IMG/VR virus record: IMGVR_UViG_3300028886_001681 | Location: 64,001-128,000 of that record | Strand: one strand, 5' to 3' | DNA length: 64,000 nucleotides | Source: a virus | Taxonomy: Duplodnaviria > Caudoviricetes | Part shown: positions 1 to 63,027 of the stretch, piece by piece | Position numbering within the stretch: position 1 is the stretch's first letter | Layout of the letters: each line of letters opens with the position of its first letter | The notes under the pieces: generated by a model | What the model was told of the DNA's origin: nothing | What the model saw: only the letters and a program-made list of their open reading frames with translations | Databases searched by the model: none | Made by a program: the position numbers and the translations under genes

Positions 1-406
1 ATTTGTAGTCGGATTCTAGTCCGTCAAGTTTCGCCAATTTTTTCTCTATTGAATTTTTGGACTTGTCGAACGAAGCCTTCGCTTTCTTGGTTTTGTTTTT
101 CGTGGATTCGTCAATTTTTTCGTTTTGCTCTTTGGTTAGCGTTTTCTTATGGTTGAGTTTAATCGTGACCACTTTAGCGCAATCCATGTATTGATTCTTG
201 AACTGTTTGTCGGTCAGATTGCTCCAATCTCTCTTTTGAATTTCTTCCGCAAGCAAAGATGTGCCGAAATAAGTTCTGAATGTTTTTGCTGTTGCGAACT
301 CATATTTATTTTTTATTGTTTCCAATAACGAATCGTCAATTTCAAATTTATCGACCGATAGCAAGTTCTTCAAGCGTTTTGGTAATTTTGTCATAATTAT
401 AAGCAT
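1..406 (-). CDS. DNA topoisomerase IB, C-terminal part (runs off window start; absent from ORF track)
   Basis: SD TAAGGAGG (420-413), 6 nt, then ATG at 406. The open frame reads MLIIMTKLPKRLKNLL...KYEFATAKTFRTYFGTS...VTIKLNHKKT then a Lys-rich coiled coil. This matches the eukaryotic Topo IB motifs TAKVFRTY and ILCNHQR followed by the linker. Confidence 0.85.
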   Translation of the reverse strand, partial: MLIIMTKLPKRLKNLLSVDKFEIDDSLLETIKNKYEFATAKTFRTYFGTSLLAEEIQKRDWSNLTDKQFKNQYMDCAKVVTIKLNHKKTLTKEQNEKIDESTKNKTKKAKASFDKSKNSIEKKLAKLDGLESDYK

Positions 407-1292
407 ATTTGCCCTCCTTAATATTATTATATACTGTTTGTGTGTATTCGTCAAAATAATTTTTATAAACTTTTATAAAATCATTCCAAGCAATATCAAT
501 GTTAAATTTATTATATAAAAATTGTTGTAATGCTTTATTTGATTTTATTTTTAATTTTACTTTTTCATTTTTAGCGATGTTTTTTTCACCCTTCATGGAA
601 TCACTTCGTATTTTTTTACTTTCTTCAGTGATTCCATTTTTGCGTTTTTCAGAATAAATTTTTTTATCTCCATCGGATAAAGAATCCCAAAACATTTTAT
701 TTTTTTCAGATTTATTTTTCTTTTCTTTTTCATTCCAATGTTTCCCTTTCATTGGATTGATATAATTTTTTTGTTTTGCTAATTTTTTATGAGTTTTGCT
801 TGATTTTTCTTTCAATTCATTTGTCCACATTTCTTTAACTTTTTGTTTATGAAAATCTTTAACTTTTTCAAAGCCATCTCTTTGATGTTGTCTTAATGTA
901 TCGAATTCTTCTTTTGATAAAGATTTATACCATGATTTTGTAGATTGAGATTTTTTTAATTTTTGTTCATCAGTTATATATAAATTATAATTAGATTCCC
1001 CACCTTCGGTCATGTTGTATCCAAAATTTAAATCATTGGAATGAAAAAGTTTAATTAATCTTTTTTCCCAATAATTTAAGTCATAAGTTTCAATTAATAT
1101 TTCAAAAGAAAAATTTTTAACGCCATATTTTCTTATTGCTTTATGAATATAACAATCATCTTTTGAATTTATATGAGAAATCCATCTATTGTGAATATCA
1201 ATTGATTGACCGATATAAACTTTATGATTTATGAGATTTTCAATTTTATAAATTCCACTAATATGATTATTATATATTTTATGTCTACTCAT
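348..1292 (-). CDS. GIY-YIG homing endonuclease (free-standing, Seg-like)
   Basis: SGIYKIENLINHKVYIGQS...R...E...GYN core followed by a basic NUMOD-like tail; very AT-rich. Confidence 0.9.
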   Translation of the reverse strand: MSRHKIYNNHISGIYKIENLINHKVYIGQSIDIHNRWISHINSKDDCYIHKAIRKYGVKNFSFEILIETYDLNYWEKRLIKLFHSNDLNFGYNMTEGGESNYNLYITDEQKLKKSQSTKSWYKSLSKEEFDTLRQHQRDGFEKVKDFHKQKVKEMWTNELKEKSSKTHKKLAKQKNYINPMKGKHWNEKEKKNKSEKNKMFWDSLSDGDKKIYSEKRKNGITEESKKIRSDSMKGEKNIAKNEKVKLKIKSNKALQQFLYNKFNIDIAWNDFIKVYKNYFDEYTQTVYNNIKEGKYAYNYDKITKTLEELAIGR

Positions 1293-2469
1293 TTAAATAA
1301 TCCATTACATTATATTTAACAATCAAACCTATCGCTAATTTAATGTCATTTTCATTTTTAGATAACAATAGTTCGTCAATTTTTATTTTTAAGCATACAT
1401 TATTTAAAAATTCGTTCACATCGTTAGACGATATTTTGTCGAACGCTCTGTCTTTTGGGCTTTTGTCTTTCAAGCATTTTTTCAACGAATCAAAAGCGTC
1501 CTCATCAACTTTCATCGTGTTGTCCATTACCATTGAGTCTTTACCCAAGAAATGCAAACGGACTTTTTTGCTTTCCAACAAAATGATGTTCTCAACTTTA
1601 AGGGTGGACGCTCCGACGACCCCATTGTTCCGTTTGTCCTCGTTGCCCGCTCGTATACCAAATTTAGAGATTATGTAGGCACAACAACCAATTTGCCGTT
1701 TCTTGGCGTTGTCGGACAAGTAAGCGTCTTTTATCGCCTTGGTGACCTTTCTGATGTTTTGTTGCAGAAGCCTAGCATTCTCGAATTTTTCCTCGTCGGA
1801 ATCCGCCTTGAATAAAGACTTGTTGGAAAACCAAATCGCCTTTTGAATCGTGACGCTAGGATTTCCAATCAACCGCTCGGTGTAGGTGGCAATTGAAGAG
1901 GTGTCCTTGAACGACACATCCTTCCATTTGTGAGTTCCGTAATCGCACGGAAACGGATAAGACGAATTGATTGACACATCTTCAGGCATTACATCTTCCA
2001 CAACAAATCCGCTCCATTCGCAAGCACCGCGCCCTATGAATATTCGGCTAGACTCGATTAATGAGTTTCCTATCTCAACCTTCTCTCCGTCAACCAAAGC
2101 GTAGCCGTAGGTTTCCTTCCATTTTTTGTTTTCTTCCGCTATTTCCTTTCTATGTTCTTTATTGTAAAGTTTCTTTTCTTCCGCGTATTTTTCTTTAATC
2201 GCTTTCATTCTTGACAGAACCGTTTCGAAGTCGGACGGAAATTTCAATTCCTTCTGTTCCTTCGTCAGTTCCGTTTTTAATGACTTATAAAAATTCTTTT
2301 GGTAGACATTTTCGCTTTTGTATTTGTCCGCCAAAGTAGACCACATGAAGAGCCATTTCACCGCTCGATATGACAATCTCATTTTATTCTCGTTGGAATA
2401 ATATTCGTCAATGTAGGGTAATTCCTTGGGGAATTTCACGCACCCTTCAATTAATTTGAGTTCTTTCAT
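1285..2469 (-). CDS. DNA topoisomerase IB, N-terminal part (eukaryote-type core)
   Basis: Motifs YGYALVDGEKVEIGN..IE...FIGRG, D.EKFENAR.L, GIRAGNE, VGASTLKVENI and FLGKDS; ends before the TAKxFRTY motif. Confidence 0.9.
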   Translation of the reverse strand: MKELKLIEGCVKFPKELPYIDEYYSNENKMRLSYRAVKWLFMWSTLADKYKSENVYQKNFYKSLKTELTKEQKELKFPSDFETVLSRMKAIKEKYAEEKKLYNKEHRKEIAEENKKWKETYGYALVDGEKVEIGNSLIESSRIFIGRGACEWSGFVVEDVMPEDVSINSSYPFPCDYGTHKWKDVSFKDTSSIATYTERLIGNPSVTIQKAIWFSNKSLFKADSDEEKFENARLLQQNIRKVTKAIKDAYLSDNAKKRQIGCCAYIISKFGIRAGNEDKRNNGVVGASTLKVENIILLESKKVRLHFLGKDSMVMDNTMKVDEDAFDSLKKCLKDKSPKDRAFDKISSNDVNEFLNNVCLKIKIDELLLSKNENDIKLAIGLIVKYNVMDYLNE

Positions 2470-2889: not shown

Positions 2890-2918
2890 ATTATAGCATG
2901 TATTGCTCGCTTTGTCAA
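2890..2918 (-). promoter_or_regulatory. consensus sigma70 promoter
   Basis: TTGACA-17 nt-TATAAT on the minus strand. Confidence 0.85.
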
Positions 2919-3232: not shown

Positions 3233-3760
3233 GGTTGGAAACATCGGTTAGTTTATCACGATGGTTTTTATAGAGAATATCAATCGGCAAGAGATGAAAT
3301 AAAATCCTATTTATCTCCATTGCTTCAAGATTTAGCAATAGAACAAAGTTGCCGCATAGATGAATTAAAACTTTATGTGATTGGCTTTTCTTTGGGTGGT
3401 TCAATTGCACCTATCGCTATGGAAGATTTTTATGAAGTTTATGCTATAAAACCAACATCGATTGCTTTTGAAGGTGCGAATCCGTGTGAAAGTTTACATA
3501 CTAGAAATTATCTGATGAATTGTATGAATCTTGATGAATCTATAGCATTTGTATATTCAAACGATTTTGTTCCAAGATGTGCCCCATTCTTCGGTAAAAA
3601 ATTAAAAGATATTATTTATTATTTAGACGACCATAAATGTAAGTTTCCGTTTTATTTTATAAAGAAGATAATCTCATTCATAAAAGATACAGAGTATTAT
3701 CATACTAGTGTGGATGAGGGTATAAGAAAATATATGCCTACAGAATGGGGATTAAATTAA
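3233..3760 (+). pseudogene. 5'-truncated class 3 lipase-like alpha/beta hydrolase
   Basis: GFSLGGS nucleophile elbow and D.VPR. The frame stays open upstream of the annotated TTG through VYHDGF back to an in-frame TAG (3230-3232), with no start codon in that extension. Confidence 0.6.
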
Positions 3761-10833: not shown

Positions 10834-11052
10834 TTAAATCTGATACCAAGTCTTTGAAGTTTCTTCGTAGAACCAAACTTCACCTGTGTCGACGCAGAAA
10901 GCGGTGGAACCTGTGATGGTGTTCTGCATTTCATTAGGAAGAAGAGTGACATCGGAACTCAAGCCCATGAAGAGTTTGTGGTTGCCCTTTATCTCAGTTA
11001 AAACAAAACTACCGTAATGCTCTGTCGTGTCTGGTATATTCGTGTTTGCCAT
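10834..11052 (-). CDS. small structural-type protein
   Basis: GSTAFCVDTGEVWFY...W; late-type motif upstream. Confidence 0.45.
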   Translation of the reverse strand: MANTNIPDTTEHYGSFVLTEIKGNHKLFMGLSSDVTLLPNEMQNTITGSTAFCVDTGEVWFYEETSKTWYQI

Positions 11053-11239
11053 ATCATTACTCCATTCATTGTGATTTTTTAAATAGTTATTCCAACCTTT
11101 CGTAAGTTGGTTTCGTAAAATTTTTCATGAAATTGTTGAAAAGAATTTCGATGTGCGCTAATATGCGAAAAACACTAAATGTTGGGTTGAAAACGATAAC
11201 TATTGTTAGTCCGACACTACATACAGAGAGGTAAAAATC

Positions 11240-12046
11240 ATGAAGGTAAGAAAAAGAGACGGAAGATTTGCGAATTTCAACGAATCAAAAATTGCGAACG
11301 CCATTAAATTGGCGTCTGAAAATTCAAAAAGCGACAACAAAATAACAGACGAACAAATAAAAAACACCCTTACTTTTGTAAAGTTATCTATTGAAGGTAA
11401 AGATGAGGTTAGTGTCGATGACATTCATGACTTGGTTGAAAAATCTTTGAAAAAAGAAAACAAGGATGTCGCCAAGTCATACATCGAATACAGAAAAAAC
11501 CGAGAACTTGACAGATTTAGAAATCTTGAAATTACAAAAAGAATTTTTGAAAAATTGAACGCGACGAATGTCATGAATCAAAACGCAAACCTCGACGAAT
11601 TTTCGTTCGGAGGAAGAAAGGGCGAAGCGGATTCCGCATTGTTGAAGGAGTTAGCCTTGAACTATTTGATTTCTCCCAAATTCGCCAAAAACCACAATAA
11701 CAATAGAATTTATATACACGACCTAGACTCTTATTTTGTCGGAATGCATAACTGTTTATCGCTTCCCATTGACGATTTGTTAAGAAACGGAATGAAAACT
11801 AGACAAGTTTTCATTAGACCCGCCAACAGTTTGTCGACCGCAATGCAACTTGTCGCAGTGGCGATTCAATTACAATCTTTGCAACAGTTCGGAGGTGTGG
11901 CGGTAACTCACATCGATTGGACTATGGTTCCTTACATTCGAAAATCGTTTTTCAAGCATTATAATGATGGCCTTAAATACGCGGAAGGCAAATCGGATAA
12001 AGAAATTGAAAAAATCGACAATGGGATTTTAGAAAAAAGTAAGTGA
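11240..12046 (+). CDS. nrdD: anaerobic ribonucleotide reductase NrdD, N-terminal fragment
   Basis: ATP cone (VRKRDGR...F..SKI), NQNAN, IYIHDLD, HNC, QQFGG. Confidence 0.92.
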   Translation: MKVRKRDGRFANFNESKIANAIKLASENSKSDNKITDEQIKNTLTFVKLSIEGKDEVSVDDIHDLVEKSLKKENKDVAKSYIEYRKNRELDRFRNLEITKRIFEKLNATNVMNQNANLDEFSFGGRKGEADSALLKELALNYLISPKFAKNHNNNRIYIHDLDSYFVGMHNCLSLPIDDLLRNGMKTRQVFIRPANSLSTAMQLVAVAIQLQSLQQFGGVAVTHIDWTMVPYIRKSFFKHYNDGLKYAEGKSDKEIEKIDNGILEKSK

Positions 12047-12074
12047 TTTCCCAATCGGATTAACTATTTGTATT

Positions 12075-13409
12075 ATGAAAGAAACATTGATAGAAATATT
12101 TAAGAAAAAAGGCATTCTCAATAAAAATAACGGACGAAAATTCTGTTATAAAAATTATTGGGACGACGAATGCGAATCGTTGTGGGGAAAATATTCTTCT
12201 AATTATAGAAGTAATGATGAAGCGTGGTATTGCTTGTCTAAAAATGTAGAACCTCCGAAATGTCCATTGTGTGATAAGTTATGTAGATTTGTGGGCGGAA
12301 AGCGAGGTTATAAAATAACTTGCGAAACTTGTGACCCAAATAAAGTTCCGTCTAAATTAAAACATTTTTCCAAGACTATTTCTAAAAGAACAGAAGAAGA
12401 AAAAAGGAAAATCTTTGAAAAAAGAAAACAAACTAATTTAGAATTATACGGAGATGAAAATTTTACATTGTATGGCTCTAAATCTTTCAAAGAAAACATG
12501 TTGAATAAATATGGCAATGAAAATTACTCTAATCACGAAAAAGCAAAAGAAACTAGTATCGAACGATATGGTGTGGATTGCAATTTTAAAAGGGAAGGAT
12601 TTCAACAATATTCTGCGAATAAAAAACGAGAACTATACGGCAACGCCTCTAATTATGAAAAAACCATGAAAACCAACATGAAGAGGTATGGTGTTCCCCA
12701 CATAGGACAATGTAGAGAAATAATAAATAAAAATAATCTCGAAAAACAAGAAAAATATGATAAATTCGAAATTGAAAACGATTGCACATCGAGGAGTAAA
12801 TTAAAAAAATTATACGGTGTAGGATGGTGGTCTCTCGGTATAGAATATCTTGAATACATGGGGCATTATTTTGTACCTAATGAATTTTTAAAAGATATAA
12901 TAGAATATTCTAGCGAAGGTACGCACACCAACAGTTATATTTCTAAACGAGAAGTTGAGCTTAGAAATTACATTAAAGAAATTTATGATGGTGAAATTCT
13001 CAACAATGTGACCAATGTCGTAAAAAATAACAATCATAGATATTTTGAATTAGATTTGTATTTGCCTCGATTAAAAATTGCATTTGATTTTGACGGAATG
13101 TATTGGCATTCCATAAAATTTAAAGATAAATATTATCATCAAAGAAAAAGTGTATGTTGTTTGGAGCAAGGGGTTAGATTGGCTCATATACAAGAAGATG
13201 AATGGGTGAATAATCGTGAGGTTTTGTGCGATAAAATAAGACAATTAATTTTTGAAAACAAAACATTTAATGATGGTTGTTTCCCACCTTCGTTGAACGA
13301 TTATAATTTTTCTGAACCTAGAAAGATTATGATTGATAAATTTGGTAAAAAAACACTTGACGAAAGCCAGTGTAATTTAATATATTATGATACAGGAGTT
13401 ATTTTATGA
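12075..13409 (+). CDS. free-standing Vsr-like endonuclease with (K/R)YG repeats, inserted in nrdD
   Basis: CPLC, repeated T..ERYG units, ELDLY....IAFDFDGMYWHS...IQEDEW. Confidence 0.75.
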   Translation: MKETLIEIFKKKGILNKNNGRKFCYKNYWDDECESLWGKYSSNYRSNDEAWYCLSKNVEPPKCPLCDKLCRFVGGKRGYKITCETCDPNKVPSKLKHFSKTISKRTEEEKRKIFEKRKQTNLELYGDENFTLYGSKSFKENMLNKYGNENYSNHEKAKETSIERYGVDCNFKREGFQQYSANKKRELYGNASNYEKTMKTNMKRYGVPHIGQCREIINKNNLEKQEKYDKFEIENDCTSRSKLKKLYGVGWWSLGIEYLEYMGHYFVPNEFLKDIIEYSSEGTHTNSYISKREVELRNYIKEIYDGEILNNVTNVVKNNNHRYFELDLYLPRLKIAFDFDGMYWHSIKFKDKYYHQRKSVCCLEQGVRLAHIQEDEWVNNREVLCDKIRQLIFENKTFNDGCFPPSLNDYNFSEPRKIMIDKFGKKTLDESQCNLIYYDTGVIL

Positions 13410-13558
13410 GAGATGTGATTGATGTGTCCATTGATGACGAAAAGTACAAAAAGCATAAAAAAGCGTATCAATACGCCATGGATATGCTACAAAAAGAAGT
13501 TCACCAATCGATAGAAGGATTGTTGCACAATTTAAATTCATTGCAAAGCAGGTCGGGT
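13406..13558 (+). CDS. nrdD: NrdD C-terminal fragment, exon 1 (absent from ORF track)
   Basis: SD GGAG and an ATGA overlap with the endonuclease stop; 51 codons MRDVID...AYQYAMDMLQKEVHQSIEGLLHNLNSLQSRSG. Confidence 0.85.
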
Positions 13559-13819
13559 AGACTTTAGATTGCCCCATTCATCAGTAATGATGAATTGATA
13601 ATTCGGTAAAATCGGTGAAGACTAAATCATTAAGATATGTTGATACCGAGATAAGCATTCGAATTGCGAAAGGTCGAATGACATTGTAGAGCATAGAAGG
13701 TGAATAAATATAATCCTTCCACGAGTACCGAACATCCAAATATTTGGATGAAAATGTATGCCGAACTTATGAGAAATCATAAGAAGTATGGATAAAAAGC
13801 CATACGATAACAAATATTG
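13559..13819 (+). ncRNA. group I intron (261 nt, no ORF)
   Basis: 5' exon ends in U (GGGT) and the intron ends in G. IGS GATTGCCC pairs with the 5' exon GGGT and the 3' exon AATC. Splicing restores SRSG|NQLPFSSINYG. Confidence 0.88.
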
Positions 13820-15664
13820 AATCAATTGCCGTTTTCGTCCATAAATTACGGAACTTGCACATTGAAAGAAGGTCGTTTACTAACCAAAGAAATTTTGGAA
13901 TGCACAATCGATGGTGTTGGAAATCACGCGACTTCCATTTTCCCATGCCAGATTTTTCAATTGATGGACGGTGTAAATGTGAAAGAAAGCGACCCTAATT
14001 ATGATTTATTCAGATTAGCAATCGAATGTACATCAAAACGCTTATATCCTAATTATGTAAACTGTGATTGGAGCAACGACCAAGGATATAATAAAGATGA
14101 CCCTAGAACTTATCCTAGTACAATGGGTGCGGTTCGTGGAGACGAAATTGTTTCTATTAAAATCAACGATGTTGAATTTAATGATATTTCGATTAAAAAA
14201 GCAATAGAAATGATTAATGCATATACTTCTAATGTCGAATGGATTAACAATGAATCTGATAAAATTGGATATACAAAACATAAACGAGTAAAAGATTGTC
14301 AGATTAAGTGTCAATCAAAATGGGTTAGAATTCTCAACATCGAATTCAACGACAAATCATCCCCCTTAAAATTATACGAAGTCACTTTTGATAAAAACGA
14401 AACCGAGCAAACTCTCCATATCACGGAAGACCATCCTTTACACACTAGCAGAGGAAGAGTCGAGGCTAGGGATTTGAAGGTCGGAGATGTGATTTATGAC
14501 TCCATTAGCGGTTACGGTTACAAAATCGTTTCCGTAAAAGAAACTAACGAAAAATGCGACACTTACGACTTCACTACAGAAACAGACATGTTTGATTTGA
14601 GCGGAATCGTCTCTCATAACTGTAGGACTTATAGCAGTAGCGACATAAACGCGGAGTCTGCGGAATTGTCGCATATTAAGGACGGACGAGGAAACATAAC
14701 ACCTGCGACTATAGTTTTGCCAACAATAGCCATGGAATCAAAAAAGAAAATGAAAGACGATACTGATGAAAAGGTTTTGATTGAACTTTTCATGAAAAAT
14801 CTCGAAGACGCGATAATCGACTGTAAAGACGAATTGATTGAAAGATTCAATTACATTTGCTCGCAAAATCCAAAATCCGCTTCCTTCATGTATGAAAACG
14901 GAACATTCTACGGATATAAAGAAAGCGAGGGAATTCGTTCAGCGTTGAAACACGGCAGTTTGGCGGTGGGACAAATAGGCTTGGCGGAAACTTTGCAAAT
15001 TTTAATTGGAACAGACCAATGCACGAAAAAAGGAATGGAGTTGGCAAAGAGAATTGAGGAATTATTCAAGCGAAAGTGTTCTGAGTTTAAGAACGAATAT
15101 AAATTGAATTTTGGAGTTTATTACACACCTGCGGAAGGATTATCAAAGACTTCATTCGATAAATTTGTGAAAAAATACGGTCTTATTGAAAATGTCACTG
15201 CATATAAAGATGAAAACGGAAAATTACAACCTAGAGGATATTTCACGAATTCGATTCATGTTCCTGTTTGGAAGGAAATTTCTCCGTTTGAAAAAATAGA
15301 CATAGAATCCCAATTAACGAATTATTCTTCGGCAGGTTGCATTACTTATGTTGAAATCGGAGACAACGCTTCCAACAACTTGAAAGCCCTCGAAGAACTC
15401 GTATTGTACGCCAAGTCGAAAGATGTTCCATATTTCGCATTGAATCTTCCGTTGTCGCATTGCAAAAAATGCGGTTGCGACGAAAACATTGGTTTTGAGG
15501 AAAGTTGTCCTAAATGTGGAGCGGATAAAGATGAAATTGAACATCTCGCTCGCGTGACAGGTTATCTCTCCACGGACTACAAGCATTTTAATTTAGGAAA
15601 GCAACACGAAGTCAAAGACCGATATGTTCATGTGAATAAATTGTCGTCATGGAAACAAAAATGA
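13820..15664 (+). CDS. nrdD: NrdD C-terminal fragment, exon 2 (contains an intein)
   Basis: NQLPFSSINYG, IFP, MG..CRT, GRGN, TPAEGL, YFTNS.H, CxxC...CPKCG and the glycyl-radical motif RVTGYL. Confidence 0.92.
   Translation, partial: NQLPFSSINYGTCTLKEGRLLTKEILECTIDGVGNHATSIFPCQIFQLMDGVNVKESDPNYDLFRLAIECTSKRLYPNYVNCDWSNDQGYNKDDPRTYPSTMGAVRGDEIVSIKINDVEFNDISIKKAIEMINAYTSNVEWINNESDKIGYTKHKRVKDCQIKCQSKWVRILNIEFNDKSSPLKLYEVTFDKNETEQTLHITEDHPLHTSRGRVEARDLKVGDVIYDSISGYGYKIVSVKETNEKCDTYDFTTETDMFDLSGIVSHNCRTYSSSDINAESAELSHIKDGRGNITPATIVLPTIAMESKKKMKDDTDEKVLIELFMKNLEDAIIDCKDELIERFNYICSQNPKSASFMYENGTFYGYKESEGIRSALKHGSLAVGQIGLAETLQILIGTDQCTKKGMELAKRIEELFKRKCSEFKNEYKLNFGVYYTPAEGLSKTSFDKFVKKYGLIENVTAYKDENGKLQPRGYFTNSIHVPVWKEISPFEKIDIESQLTNYSSAGCITYVEIGDNASNNLKALEELVLYAKSKDVPYFALNLPLSHCKKCGCDENIGFEESCPKCGADKDEIEHLARVTGYLSTDYKHFNLGKQHEVKDRYVHVNKLSSWKQK
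14129..14620 (+). mobile_element. mini-intein (164 aa) starting with Ala
   Basis: Interrupts STMG|CRT; block B TEDHP, block F TYDF, C-terminal SHN followed by Cys. Confidence 0.88.
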
Positions 15665-16164
15665 GATACGCGAATATCATAGAAAACGACATAGTTGACT
15701 CCATAAGTGGAATCAATGTGTCGTTTTGGTGTCAAGGTTGCAATTTCCATTGTCCTCATTGTCATAATCCGCAAACATGGAATTTGTGTGGCGGTCAAGA
15801 ACTCCCATCAAATTACAAAGAAATCGTTTTGGAATTGCTTCATAAAAACGGAATCAATCGAGGACTGTCTATTTTAGGCGGAGAACCTTTGATTGAGCAA
15901 AATCGTCAACTTGTTTCTGATTTGGTGAATTATGTCAAAGATAAATCTCCTACCACAATCATATATCTGTGGAGCGGATACACTTTGGAAGAGTTGAGAA
16001 AAATGAACGATGCTAGCGTGAACTTCATTCTGTCAACAATCGATTACCTAATCGACGGTCGCTACGAGGACGGCAAGAAGGACTTGTCGCTAAAGTTGAG
16101 AGGAAGTTCCAACCAAAATGTCTATCGACGAGTGAACGGCAAATTGAAGAAAATCGAAATTTAA
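15661..16164 (+). CDS. nrdG: anaerobic RNR activating enzyme
   Basis: CNFHCPHCHNP, LGGEP, DGRY, LRGSSNQ. Confidence 0.93.
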   Translation: MRYANIIENDIVDSISGINVSFWCQGCNFHCPHCHNPQTWNLCGGQELPSNYKEIVLELLHKNGINRGLSILGGEPLIEQNRQLVSDLVNYVKDKSPTTIIYLWSGYTLEELRKMNDASVNFILSTIDYLIDGRYEDGKKDLSLKLRGSSNQNVYRRVNGKLKKIEI

Positions 16165-57119: not shown

Positions 57120-58742
57120 ATGAAAGAAACTGAAAGTAAGAAAAAGGAATTGTACTCGCTCAAGGAACTGCACAAGATGAAAGTGTATCCTACTCTCTTG
57201 GAATACCTTGGAATTGAAACTGTGAAGAAAGGCCGAGCGACATATATAACCCAAGAGTCCTTGGATAAAGCGTTAAAATTCAAGGAGGAGAATCCTAACA
57301 CGAGAGTTTTGTTGCAAAAATTCGCCTTCATGAAAAAATACGGAGTCGAGAACCCCCAACAAGCCAAAGAAATCCGAGAAAAGACGCTCTCCACAGTCAA
57401 GGAAAGGTACGGAGTCGAGAACACTTCGCAATCCCAAGAGGTCAAGGACAAGAAGGCTGACACTCTACGAAAGCGTTACGGAGAAAATGTGTCCAACCCC
57501 ATGGATTGCGAGGAATTCGTTTTTAAAGTGAAGGAGAATTGGAAAAACAAGAGTCGAGAGGAGATGAATGCTCTGACCGAAAAGACGAAGAGGACATCGA
57601 TGCTCAAATACGGTTTCGACAACGCTATGAAAAACAAAAATGTAGCAGACAAGTCGAAAAACAATAAAAAGGAAAACAAACTCAAGGAACTTGAAAAATA
57701 CAAAGATTATGTTCCCATAAAAGAAATTTGCATGATTGTCTCAAGGTGTTATGACAGAGTCTTGGATGTAATCAAACTTTTGGGATTGGAGATTATAGAA
57801 GTCAAGGATTCCCACTTAGTGAAAAAATCCGATTTAGATAAAATCAAAAAATATTTTGAAGTTGCGTCGGATTACGCTACTTCAAACGAAGAAAAAGAGT
57901 TGTTGGAATTCATCGAAACATTAACCGACGAAAAAATTATCTCCAACGATAAATTGACGATAAATCCATACGAATTAGACATTTTCATTCCTTCAAAAAA
58001 TTTGGCGTTCGAATTTGACGGAATTTACTACCACTCCAACCAATTCAAAGACAAATTTTACCATTACGACAAAACCAAGTTGTGCGAGAAAAAAGGAATT
58101 AGATTAATTCATGTCTTTGAGGACGACTGGCGATTCAAGCGGAACATAGTGAAATCGATGATAAATGCTTCGTTGGGAATTTACGAACGGAAAATATTCG
58201 CTCGCGAATGTGAAGTCAAAAACATTTTCAATTTTGAATACCGAGATTTTATGAACGAAAACCATCTGCAAGGATACGCTTCCGCTAGTCGTTATTTAGG
58301 ATTGTATTATCGCGGAGAATTGGTTCAGTGCGTGGGAATAAAATATAACGGAATCAACAAGACTTGGGAATTGAACCGCATGGCCACTAAACTCAACAAT
58401 CAAGTCGTGGGAGGCTTTAGCAAACTATTGAAACACGCGATAGAGCGATTCAACATCAAGGAAATGACTTCCTATGTCTTCAAGTCTTGGTTCGACGGAA
58501 AATCTTACGAGGCTTGCGGATTCAAATTCGACAAGGAATGCCCTCCGACTTATTGGTATGTCGTGAATGGAATGAAAACAAACCGAATGAATTGGCAAAA
58601 GAAATTCATCAAGGAGAAATTCAACAAGGGTGAATTGAGGCATTACGACGAATTAGAAAGCGAGTTTGACAACATGGCGAAAAACGGATTCAATTGGATT
58701 TGGGATAGCGGTAAAATAAGATTAAGGTATAAATCGGAATGA
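57120..58742 (+). CDS. Hef-like putative homing endonuclease
   Basis: YGVEN repeats, ELDI....AFEFDGIYYHS, IFAR.CEV, NHLQG, VVGGFSKL, WDSG. Confidence 0.75.
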   Translation: MKETESKKKELYSLKELHKMKVYPTLLEYLGIETVKKGRATYITQESLDKALKFKEENPNTRVLLQKFAFMKKYGVENPQQAKEIREKTLSTVKERYGVENTSQSQEVKDKKADTLRKRYGENVSNPMDCEEFVFKVKENWKNKSREEMNALTEKTKRTSMLKYGFDNAMKNKNVADKSKNNKKENKLKELEKYKDYVPIKEICMIVSRCYDRVLDVIKLLGLEIIEVKDSHLVKKSDLDKIKKYFEVASDYATSNEEKELLEFIETLTDEKIISNDKLTINPYELDIFIPSKNLAFEFDGIYYHSNQFKDKFYHYDKTKLCEKKGIRLIHVFEDDWRFKRNIVKSMINASLGIYERKIFARECEVKNIFNFEYRDFMNENHLQGYASASRYLGLYYRGELVQCVGIKYNGINKTWELNRMATKLNNQVVGGFSKLLKHAIERFNIKEMTSYVFKSWFDGKSYEACGFKFDKECPPTYWYVVNGMKTNRMNWQKKFIKEKFNKGELRHYDELESEFDNMAKNGFNWIWDSGKIRLRYKSE

Positions 58743-61467: not shown

Positions 61468-63027
61468 TTAATCCGATTCATATCTTACTTTAATCGTTCC
61501 GCAATCATATATCCTATAATATCCCAATTTTTCCATATTTCGCTCTTCAGTCAAAGATTCGTCGAATTCCTTTGGAAACTTTTTAGCGATATTCTTCTTG
61601 GTGAAATTCATTCTATAAAACCTTTCAAACTTTTTTGTATAATAATAATTCGGTTTGTTTGCCGATATTTTTTTAAATCCGCTAGACAAATAGCCATCGC
61701 CGTTGAACAACCGTCTATCGACATAAGAAATGCAATCTTTGCCATAATGTTTCATCAATTTACTAAATCCGCCGACAACTTGAGTGTTTAATTTCGTGAC
61801 CATTCTAATTAACTCGTTTTCATTTTTAGTAAATCTCGACTTTCCGAAACCAACGCATTGAACCAATTCTCCTTCATAAAACAATCCCAATCTTTCAGAA
61901 GAATTACACTCTCCTTGAATATGATTTTCGTCACAGAAGTTTCTAAATTCACGGTCGCCAATTTCTTTCACCTCGCATTTTCTAGCGAATATTTTCCGCT
62001 CGTAAATTCCCAATGACGAACTTATTATCGATTTGACGATATTTTGCTTGCATTTCCATTCGTCCTCAAATACATGAATCAATCTTATTCCTTTTTTCTC
62101 ACACATGATTGTTTTGTCGAGATGATAATTTTTATTTTTCTGATGTTCCGTGGAGTGCCAATATAATCCGTCAAATTCTATGGCGACCTTTTTATTAGGA
62201 ATATAAACATCCAATTCTTTCGGAAAAATCGTTTTTCTGTCGTTTTCTATAATTTCGTCACAATAAATGGATTTTACAAATTTTACCAAATCTCGCTCGT
62301 CTTTTGAACTGTGCGAATAATTTTTACCGATTTTATCCAATTGTTCATTTATTAAAGAAATGTCGCGATTTTTAATATATGGAACATTTTCAAACATAAG
62401 CAATTTTACATTCGTTTGTTCCAAACAATAATTCAATGTGCTCGCGGAATGCTTTACGCTCGGTTCAAATATTTCCGAAAACATGGAACAATCGTTTTCT
62501 TCGCAAAATTTTTCGGAAGCGTTTTTAAATCTTTCCTTCCTTCGCCTTCCCATTTCCACATTATAATCTTCTATGCTCTTGTATCTTTCGACGATTGTTT
62601 CCTTCGCCTTGTCGGAATTTATGAAATCGCAAGTTCCGTAGCGCTTCATGTTGGTTTTGTTTCTTTTCTCAATCCGTTCCGCAGAATTTGCCTTGCTCGT
62701 CTCCGACAATTTCTTTCTAATTTCTTCAAGTTGGGATTTGTTTTCCACTCCGTATTTTAATAACGAGATTGCCTTTGATTTCTCGGCTTTGGACAAGTTC
62801 GCGTATTTCACGATTTTATCCGCCGTTTCTTGGGAGTACATTGCGACTTCTTTTTTCGCCTTGGGATGGTAGGCTTTCTTCGATTCCAAAAAAGCGGAGT
62901 ATTTCCTTATGGACTTAATTTGCGAGCGAGGAATGTTGTTATCGCCTAATATTTCATTGAGAGTTTCATAGTTTTGAGAAATTAAATTGTCATATTTTTC
63001 CGATTTATTGTTTTCCATAAGAAGCAC
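61468..63027 (-). CDS. Hef-like putative homing endonuclease (paralogue of 57120-58742)
   Basis: Same motif set: AIEFDGLYWHS, IFARKCEV, VVGGFSKL, YDCG. Confidence 0.75.
   Translation of the reverse strand: MLLMENNKSEKYDNLISQNYETLNEILGDNNIPRSQIKSIRKYSAFLESKKAYHPKAKKEVAMYSQETADKIVKYANLSKAEKSKAISLLKYGVENKSQLEEIRKKLSETSKANSAERIEKRNKTNMKRYGTCDFINSDKAKETIVERYKSIEDYNVEMGRRRKERFKNASEKFCEENDCSMFSEIFEPSVKHSASTLNYCLEQTNVKLLMFENVPYIKNRDISLINEQLDKIGKNYSHSSKDERDLVKFVKSIYCDEIIENDRKTIFPKELDVYIPNKKVAIEFDGLYWHSTEHQKNKNYHLDKTIMCEKKGIRLIHVFEDEWKCKQNIVKSIISSSLGIYERKIFARKCEVKEIGDREFRNFCDENHIQGECNSSERLGLFYEGELVQCVGFGKSRFTKNENELIRMVTKLNTQVVGGFSKLMKHYGKDCISYVDRRLFNGDGYLSSGFKKISANKPNYYYTKKFERFYRMNFTKKNIAKKFPKEFDESLTEERNMEKLGYYRIYDCGTIKVRYESD

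Follow-up and report, generated by a model that had tools for sequence, protein, structure and literature searches.

In an apparently large, contractile-tailed phage, a gene for topoisomerase IB is divided into two open reading frames (ORFs) by a gene for a GIY-YIG endonuclease. We consider that the insert is a mobile, free-standing GIY-YIG homing-endonuclease cassette and that the host gene is made as two chains, a reading to which we assign a probability of about 0.8. The locus lies at the left edge of the 64,000-nucleotide stretch of DNA analysed here, referred to as the window, which comprises bases 64001-128000 of the 160-kb virus record IMGVR_UViG_3300028886_001681 (estimated completeness 77%). 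The assignment to a contractile-tailed phage is made from other genes of the same record, whose products include a tail sheath, a Dda-like helicase and an SbcC-like protein as well as large HNH homing endonucleases. An earlier note on this DNA had proposed that the topoisomerase gene is split by a free-standing GIY-YIG gene with no splicing element, and this is borne out by Pfam matches, an empty allele, 13 further occupied alleles, and searches in which no intron or intein signal appeared.

All features of the locus lie on the minus strand, where three overlapping ORFs follow one another head to tail. The first (1285-2469, 394 residues) encodes the N-terminal part of the topoisomerase, hereafter the N-part, of which residues 1-360 are native. 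It terminates, as the earlier note had read it, 34 codons past the sequence VNEFLNNVC, and these codons form a cassette-encoded C-terminal tail (residues 361-394, window 1288-1392, stop at 1285-1287). The second ORF is the endonuclease gene (348-1292, 314 residues), whose ATG overlaps the last codons and the stop of the N-part (...AATGAGTAG) and whose last 59 nt overlap the start of the third. The third encodes the C-terminal part, hereafter the C-part, which occupies positions 1-406 and extends 317 nt past the window edge (whole ORF L001:1184-1906, minus strand, 240 residues). Within the endonuclease coding sequence, the Shine-Dalgarno (SD) sequence TAAGGAGG at 413-420 precedes by 6 nt the ATG of the C-part (404-406), which opens a frame of 35 codons, the cassette-encoded N-terminal head (residues 1-35, window 302-406), before the sequence resumes with EFATAKTFRTY. 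Both the overlapping start of the endonuclease and this buried second start had been recognized beforehand, and both stand. Over the same region, at window ~300-1400, the G+C content (GC) falls from ~43% outside to 20-25%.

The bounds of the insertion are set by comparison with an insert-free relative, a check that had been suggested beforehand. The 7.6-kb contig L002 has colinear blocks 97-98% identical to the window genome and an uninterrupted site, and at that site the sole difference between the two is 36 bp in L002 against 1,118 bp in the window. The cassette, with ~22% GC, hence spans 287-1404 and replaces 36 bp, which corrects the bounds of about 302-1392 that had been estimated from the window itself. 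The intact allele reads EFL-GSICKDIPHLSN-KTFRTY, whereas the occupied allele reads EFL-NNVC followed by the 34-residue tail and its stop, and then the 35-residue head followed by EFATA-KTFRTY. It follows from this comparison that the cassette replaces four exon codons on the upstream side and six on the downstream side (EFATAK) by codons of its own and eliminates the stretch coding for KDIPHLSN, which presumably contains or adjoins the endonuclease target. Besides the substitute exon codons (NNVC on the 5' side and EFATA(K) on the 3' side), the cassette thus holds the endonuclease gene, the two tails, and the signals for stop, SD and start. The join VC|EF, from which the site had originally been deduced, reproduces the spacing of the human enzyme (9 residues) but not the native one, as intact relatives have 12 residues from EFL to KTFRT.

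The same order of N-part, endonuclease and C-part at the same site is found in 13 further contigs from several projects. Where the flanking exons of two alleles are 5-12% different, their cassettes still share 99-100% identity: the cassette is 100% identical among L007, L008, L010, L012, L017 and L018, the exons of which share 89-99%, and between L003 and L014 it is 99% identical with exons at 88-93%. The window copy is more distant, with 89-90% identity to the other occupied alleles in the cassette and 58-77% in the exons; the corresponding synonymous divergence is 0.29-0.33 for the endonuclease and 0.82-0.94 for the exons. Because the identity of the cassette exceeds that of the flanking exons across alleles, the comparison points to horizontal spread, repeated and recent, into a fixed site, which is the signature of homing. 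Two alleles with an empty site are damaged in their own right, within the N-terminal DNA-binding domain. One, L002:643-2321, lacks 25 nt that are present in the window and is called as proteins of 136 and 411 residues; the other, L019:3537-5137, is called as 157 and 378 residues with ~33 residues missing. These breaks could be real decay or assembly errors.

The endonuclease itself matches the GIY-YIG family of Pfam (PF01541, expectation value (E) 2.3e-07, residues 13-88) and homing-endonuclease families of PHROG (1.6e-19), and its GIY, YIG, Arg, Glu and Asn motifs, which we assign from knowledge of I-TevI, are readable. Members of the cluster of 84%-identical endonucleases occur only within topoisomerase IB genes. 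The closest relatives beyond this cluster have the catalytic domain alone in common with it, and one near relative whose context was examined is an ordinary intergenic free-standing gene. The endonuclease is present as a single copy in this genome record. What marks a free-standing homing endonuclease, namely presence/absence polymorphism together with discordant histories of element and host gene, is found at this locus.

By its domains, the interrupted gene is a topoisomerase IB of the long, eukaryote/archaeal/giant-virus type. The N-part matches Topoisom_I_N (8.5e-26), positions 2-143 of the 228 positions of Topoisom_I (5.9e-33), and, at E 6e-40, structures of human topoisomerase I; the match of the C-part covers positions 140-225 of the same Topoisom_I model. 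Intact relatives found by protein search are single chains of 568 residues with 70-78% identity, which also carry Topo_C_assoc. The single polypeptide of a type IB enzyme is not what is encoded here, as the window and the 13 other loci each have two ORFs with the endonuclease gene between them. R273 (1651-1653) and K310 (1540-1542) of the N-part align with human R488 and K532, while R44 (275-277), H86 (149-151) and Y193 (L001 1328-1330) of the C-part align with human R590, H632 and Y723. R273 and K310 as well as K41, R44, H86 and Y193 are invariant in alignments of 37 sequences. The earlier note had assigned the equivalents of R488 and K532 to one chain and those of R590, H632 and presumably the tyrosine to the other, although the last of these lay out of its sight; the Y193 codon sits 170 nt past the window edge, in the motif NTAMTNYSNP, and is present. 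The alignments confirm that all five predicted catalytic residues are kept, two on one chain and three on the other.

Neither half carries a stop or frameshift at any of the 14 occupied loci: the N-part frame is open at every one of them, and the C-part frame is complete at 240 residues, or open to the end of the contig, wherever the contig covers it. At L017:316-1929, a one-base deletion in a run of A near the 3' end of the endonuclease gene (window-equivalent ~464) creates a fusion ORF of endonuclease and C-part (537 residues); it may be a homopolymer sequencing error. In AlphaFold2 (AF2) models, the mean predicted local distance difference test score (pLDDT) is 87.5 for the N-part and 84.1 for the C-part, and the native parts are modelled with confidence. 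The break falls in a loop between two helices, the first ending at residue 358 and the second bearing R44, and the insertion point is 8 residues ahead of the Arg equivalent to R590. A type IB topoisomerase can apparently tolerate being broken between the second and the third of its catalytic residues.

An indication that the two products are used comes from the tails. They are present in all occupied alleles and in none of the empty ones, they are AT-rich, and they diverge with the endonuclease and not with the exons; these properties support the proposal, already made in the earlier note, that they arrived with the cassette. Among the four cassette haplotypes, 50 tail codons lie outside the overlap with the endonuclease gene, with 17.8% synonymous sites. 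In the topoisomerase frame, 11 synonymous and 8 non-synonymous events are counted (binomial P ~1e-4), against 0-2 synonymous and 7-9 non-synonymous events in the other two frames. The pairwise ratio of non-synonymous to synonymous divergence (pN/pS) of the tails is 0.13-0.19 and so resembles that of the endonuclease, 0.21. This frame-specific purifying selection indicates that the tails are translated, and that they are constrained in the topoisomerase frame only. Since the tails exist only in the split state and yet are under selection, the split products would appear to be in use. The start of the second protein is also kept in every haplotype, with TAAGGAGG or TAAGGAAGG as the SD and the same ATG.

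Four other explanations of the locus were weighed. The first is that the insertion killed the gene, that topoisomerase IB is dispensable, and that the halves are inert remnants which have not yet decayed after a recent spread. The near-identity of cassettes in diverged alleles implies a recent arrival and fits this explanation, and the N-terminal-domain indels of the empty-site alleles L002 and L019, if they are not assembly errors, hint that the gene can be lost. However, the cassette lineage is old, as the synonymous divergence of ~0.3 between the window copy and the others indicates; the tails, which occur in the split state only, bear the mark of frame-specific purifying selection; the SD and ATG have been kept in all haplotypes; and both halves remain open with an intact catalytic pentad throughout the 14 loci. 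We consider a dead gene unlikely.

A second explanation is that the tails are relics of a split intein in a fractured gene, which either still splice in trans or have since decayed to a clip that acts non-covalently. Dassa et al. reportedly described, in 2009, fractured genes in which split inteins accompany a free-standing endonuclease, and the order of their parts (N-half with the N-intein as its extension, free-standing endonuclease, C-intein extension with C-half) is the order seen here. Moreover, a head of 35 residues has the typical size of a C-intein, and the tail of the N-part follows a Cys and holds an IG-x-IV-K stretch that resembles intein block A. Unlike in fractured genes, no Hint or intein signature is detectable in these extensions: no Pfam or NCBIfam model, those of inteins and Hint domains included, matched either tail at E up to 10, there was no intein among the PDB matches of the tails, and the tail of the N-part had no relative among 1.84 billion representative proteins. 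The two tails total 69 residues, which is too short for a Hint fold. The Cys is native to the topoisomerase, being present in intact alleles as well, and the head ends in KNKY, or KNKC in other haplotypes, followed by Glu, instead of the HN followed by Cys, Ser or Thr with which an intein ends; that this ending is missing had been noted before. An intein origin is therefore very unlikely, and covalent re-joining of the halves is not expected, given the lack of any such signature in the extensions.

Slightly less probable still is a cryptic, AT-rich self-splicing intron, whose core would overlap the coding sequence of the endonuclease and tails and which would restore a single mRNA. Rfam can miss divergent phage introns that carry ORFs, and some conserved U...G pairs do lie in frame, for example one leaving a spacer of 13 residues against the native 12. 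The statement in the earlier note that no frame-restoring U...G junction exists is thus incorrect: conserved junction pairs allow many in-frame joins, although none leaves a spacer of 8-12 residues (native 12, human 9). This enumeration alone is not decisive. The sole 3' G in phase 0, which is the last base of a GAG in the window, is A in other haplotypes. The observation that there is no non-coding room for an intron core holds to the letter, as the insert is without a single non-coding base, and the substitutions in the tails are codon-patterned in one frame only. Rfam gave no Intron_gpI match in the locus at E up to 10 and no intron in the whole window at the gathering score, and the non-endonuclease parts of the insert folded no better than shuffled sequences (z = -1.25, +0.27 and -0.02). 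Neither a catalytic core nor junctions restoring both frame and spacing, by which a group I intron is known, were found, and a strong SD and ATG are conserved at the very position at which a second protein would begin. Finally, the composition jumps sharply at both borders, as it would in a chimeric contig that joins unrelated AT-rich DNA into the gene, but the same junctions, with frames maintained, recur in 14 contigs that were each assembled independently and that come from a range of projects and samples, which makes such an assembly artefact negligible.

Several points nevertheless weigh against a cassette-split gene made as two working chains. The near-identical cassettes in diverged alleles imply that the spread was very recent, and for this reason much of the purifying selection on the exons may predate the insertion. 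The signal of selection on the tails consists of 19 substitution events in four haplotypes. AF2 confidence is low for both tails, with pLDDT <55 for the tail of the N-part and <50 for residues 1-20 of the head, and both tails are modelled as low-confidence helices. The charges of the tails are weakly complementary (isoelectric points 5.2 and 9.2, net charges -1 and +2), in comparison with a strong contrast in Aeromonas phage Aeh1, a split-gene system discussed below. Function as a two-chain enzyme is deduced solely from conservation. The silence of Rfam is weak evidence against a cryptic intron, because at E up to 10 Rfam was also silent on group I introns in the nrdD region (window 11000-16000), where an intron of 261 nt had been proposed.

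In the mechanism that we propose for the cassette, the GIY-YIG enzyme would cut cassette-free alleles, and repair would copy the cassette in. The co-conversion tract would be very short, since the flanks of the window match L002 right up to the cassette. On arrival, the cassette would give the upstream half its 34-codon tail and a stop, and would give the downstream half, from within the 3' end of the endonuclease gene, an SD, an ATG and a 35-codon head leading into EFATAK. A promoter-like site at 2890-2918 (minus strand), a 12/12 consensus match with TG ahead of orf124 (2479-2853) and the N-part, is the probable operon start and could serve orf124 together with the three ORFs. A candidate sigma-70-like promoter at 426-454 (minus strand; TTGACG, 17 nt, TATAAT; 11/12), which lies in the endonuclease 3' end shortly before the C-part SD, could allow separate expression of the C-part. 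Neither site is more than a consensus match, and the count of promoter-like sites in the region is not above the shuffled expectation. The overlap of the N-part stop with the next start may couple translation of the endonuclease to that of the topoisomerase.

The two chains would then reassemble non-covalently, with a composite active site made of R273 and K310 from the first chain and R44, H86 and Y193 from the second, and we infer from the conservation of these residues that they form an active enzyme. The tails may aid this assembly, as they do in Aeh1 NrdA, a role that we regard as plausible at somewhat below even odds. The stronger proposal, that the tails are a co-evolved, portable docking pair strictly required for activity and that the element is a self-neutralising gene-splitter, is advanced equally tentatively. 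A complex prediction with the two tails alone scored 0.02, a value obtained without controls. A candidate repeat between the tails (KIDELLL in the tail of the N-part, EIDDSLL in the head) was not significant and was rejected: shuffling gave equally good scores in 974 of 5000 trials with the protein and in 424 of 2000 with the DNA.

The nearest known counterpart is the nrdA-a / mobE / nrdA-b arrangement of phage Aeh1, for which Friedrich et al. (2007) is said to be the source. Both systems combine a free-standing homing endonuclease, no intron or intein, and active-site residues on two chains; in both, the endonuclease gene overlaps the downstream half, and the C- and N-terminal tails are AT-rich and without relatives in databases. 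The tails of the present locus are unique to split alleles, compositionally foreign, orphan and, among the four haplotypes, apparently retained by selection. The two differ in the endonuclease (GIY-YIG here, HNH in mobE), in the target (topoisomerase IB here, ribonucleotide reductase there), in the tails, which are longer and weakly charge-complementary here, and in the kind of evidence, which is population-level here (an empty site and many occupied alleles) and biochemical in Aeh1. The Aeh1 enzyme requires for its activity the AT-rich orphan tails that nrdA gained when mobE split it (PMC3045599). Crona et al. (2011) proposed that such insertion-derived tails are, next to introns and inteins, a third general route by which the fragmentation of genes by mobile elements is neutralised; they expected more examples and drew attention to genes 39 and 60 of T4, which mobA separates (PMC3045599).

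The T4 case resembles the present one in that a mobile endonuclease cassette divides a phage topoisomerase gene in two and the products, with tail-like extensions, reassemble (PMC3045599). The T4 enzyme, in contrast, is of type IIA with an unrelated fold, and its cassette has a 50-nt translational bypass, whereas there is no coding gap here. The splitting of the T4 topoisomerase II genes 39/60 by the MobA element was reportedly treated by Bonocora et al. in 2011 and by Manning and Atkins.

Topoisomerase IB of kinetoplastids (Leishmania, PDB 2b9s) is likewise a type IB enzyme that occurs in nature as two chains, both of which contribute to the active site, as is suggested for the phage enzyme. 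Its break lies after the R-K-R-H core, and the small subunit bears the Tyr only. Residues 41-375 of the Leishmania large subunit (2b9s_A, 432 residues) align to residues 20-357 of the N-part, and the subunit runs ~57 residues past the end of the N-part; these extra residues presumably carry the equivalents of R590 and H632. The phage break, by contrast, falls between the equivalents of K532 and R590 (K310 and R44), so that the two split points differ, as had been anticipated. Furthermore, the kinetoplastid subunits are separate nuclear genes, and no resident mobile element gave rise to them.

Literature searches turned up no account of a phage topoisomerase IB that is split. The locus adds a well-documented example to a rare but known way in which a gene survives invasion without splicing, and not a new principle. 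Few natural cases of rescue by insertion-derived tails are documented, and this one offers a clean test case, with a near-isogenic empty site, four haplotypes in 14 contigs, recent spread and apparent selection on the tails, in a very well understood enzyme that can be assayed routinely for fragment complementation and relaxation. If the docking-pair proposal is true, a nuclease gene can colonise the catalytic core of an enzyme without RNA or protein splicing, by means of a 1.1-kb package that provides a heterodimerisation module along with substitute exon codons and signals for a stop and a new start. The enzyme would then be the first natural type IB topoisomerase split inside the core, between the equivalents of K532 and R590.

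A tblastn search of INPHARED phage records with the N-part gave no match, and PHROGs had no matching topoisomerase IB family. In IMG/VR, one 218-kb phage contig (L021) carries an intact 568-residue gene with 77% identity, and the other 79 relatives among the matches listed (L021-L100) have 28-38% identity and come mostly from giant-virus records of metagenome-assembled genomes. Named cellular relatives are archaeal, with ~30% identity. A long, eukaryote-like topoisomerase IB is present in a clade of large tailed phages, and absent from the INPHARED records and the PHROG families searched.

About 1.4-2.9 kb before the window (G000:C1:61133-62582; L102:564-1787) lies a second AT-rich island of ~24-28% GC, where L002 has only 236 bp; its 407-residue ORF, a match to DUF7487 (E 8e-29), is probably a further mobile gene. 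Beside the topoisomerase operon, a Lipase_3-like ORF at 3320-3760 (plus strand, 146 residues) corresponds to residues 119-264 of a 264-residue homologue in L003 with 90% identity, the N-terminal 118 residues being missing or replaced. Two paralogous HNH homing-endonuclease-like genes stand close together at 57120-58742 (plus strand, 540 residues) and 61468-63027 (minus strand, 519 residues), both matching phrog_3339 (E 1e-102 and 1e-112, respectively), and the genome is rich in selfish nucleases.

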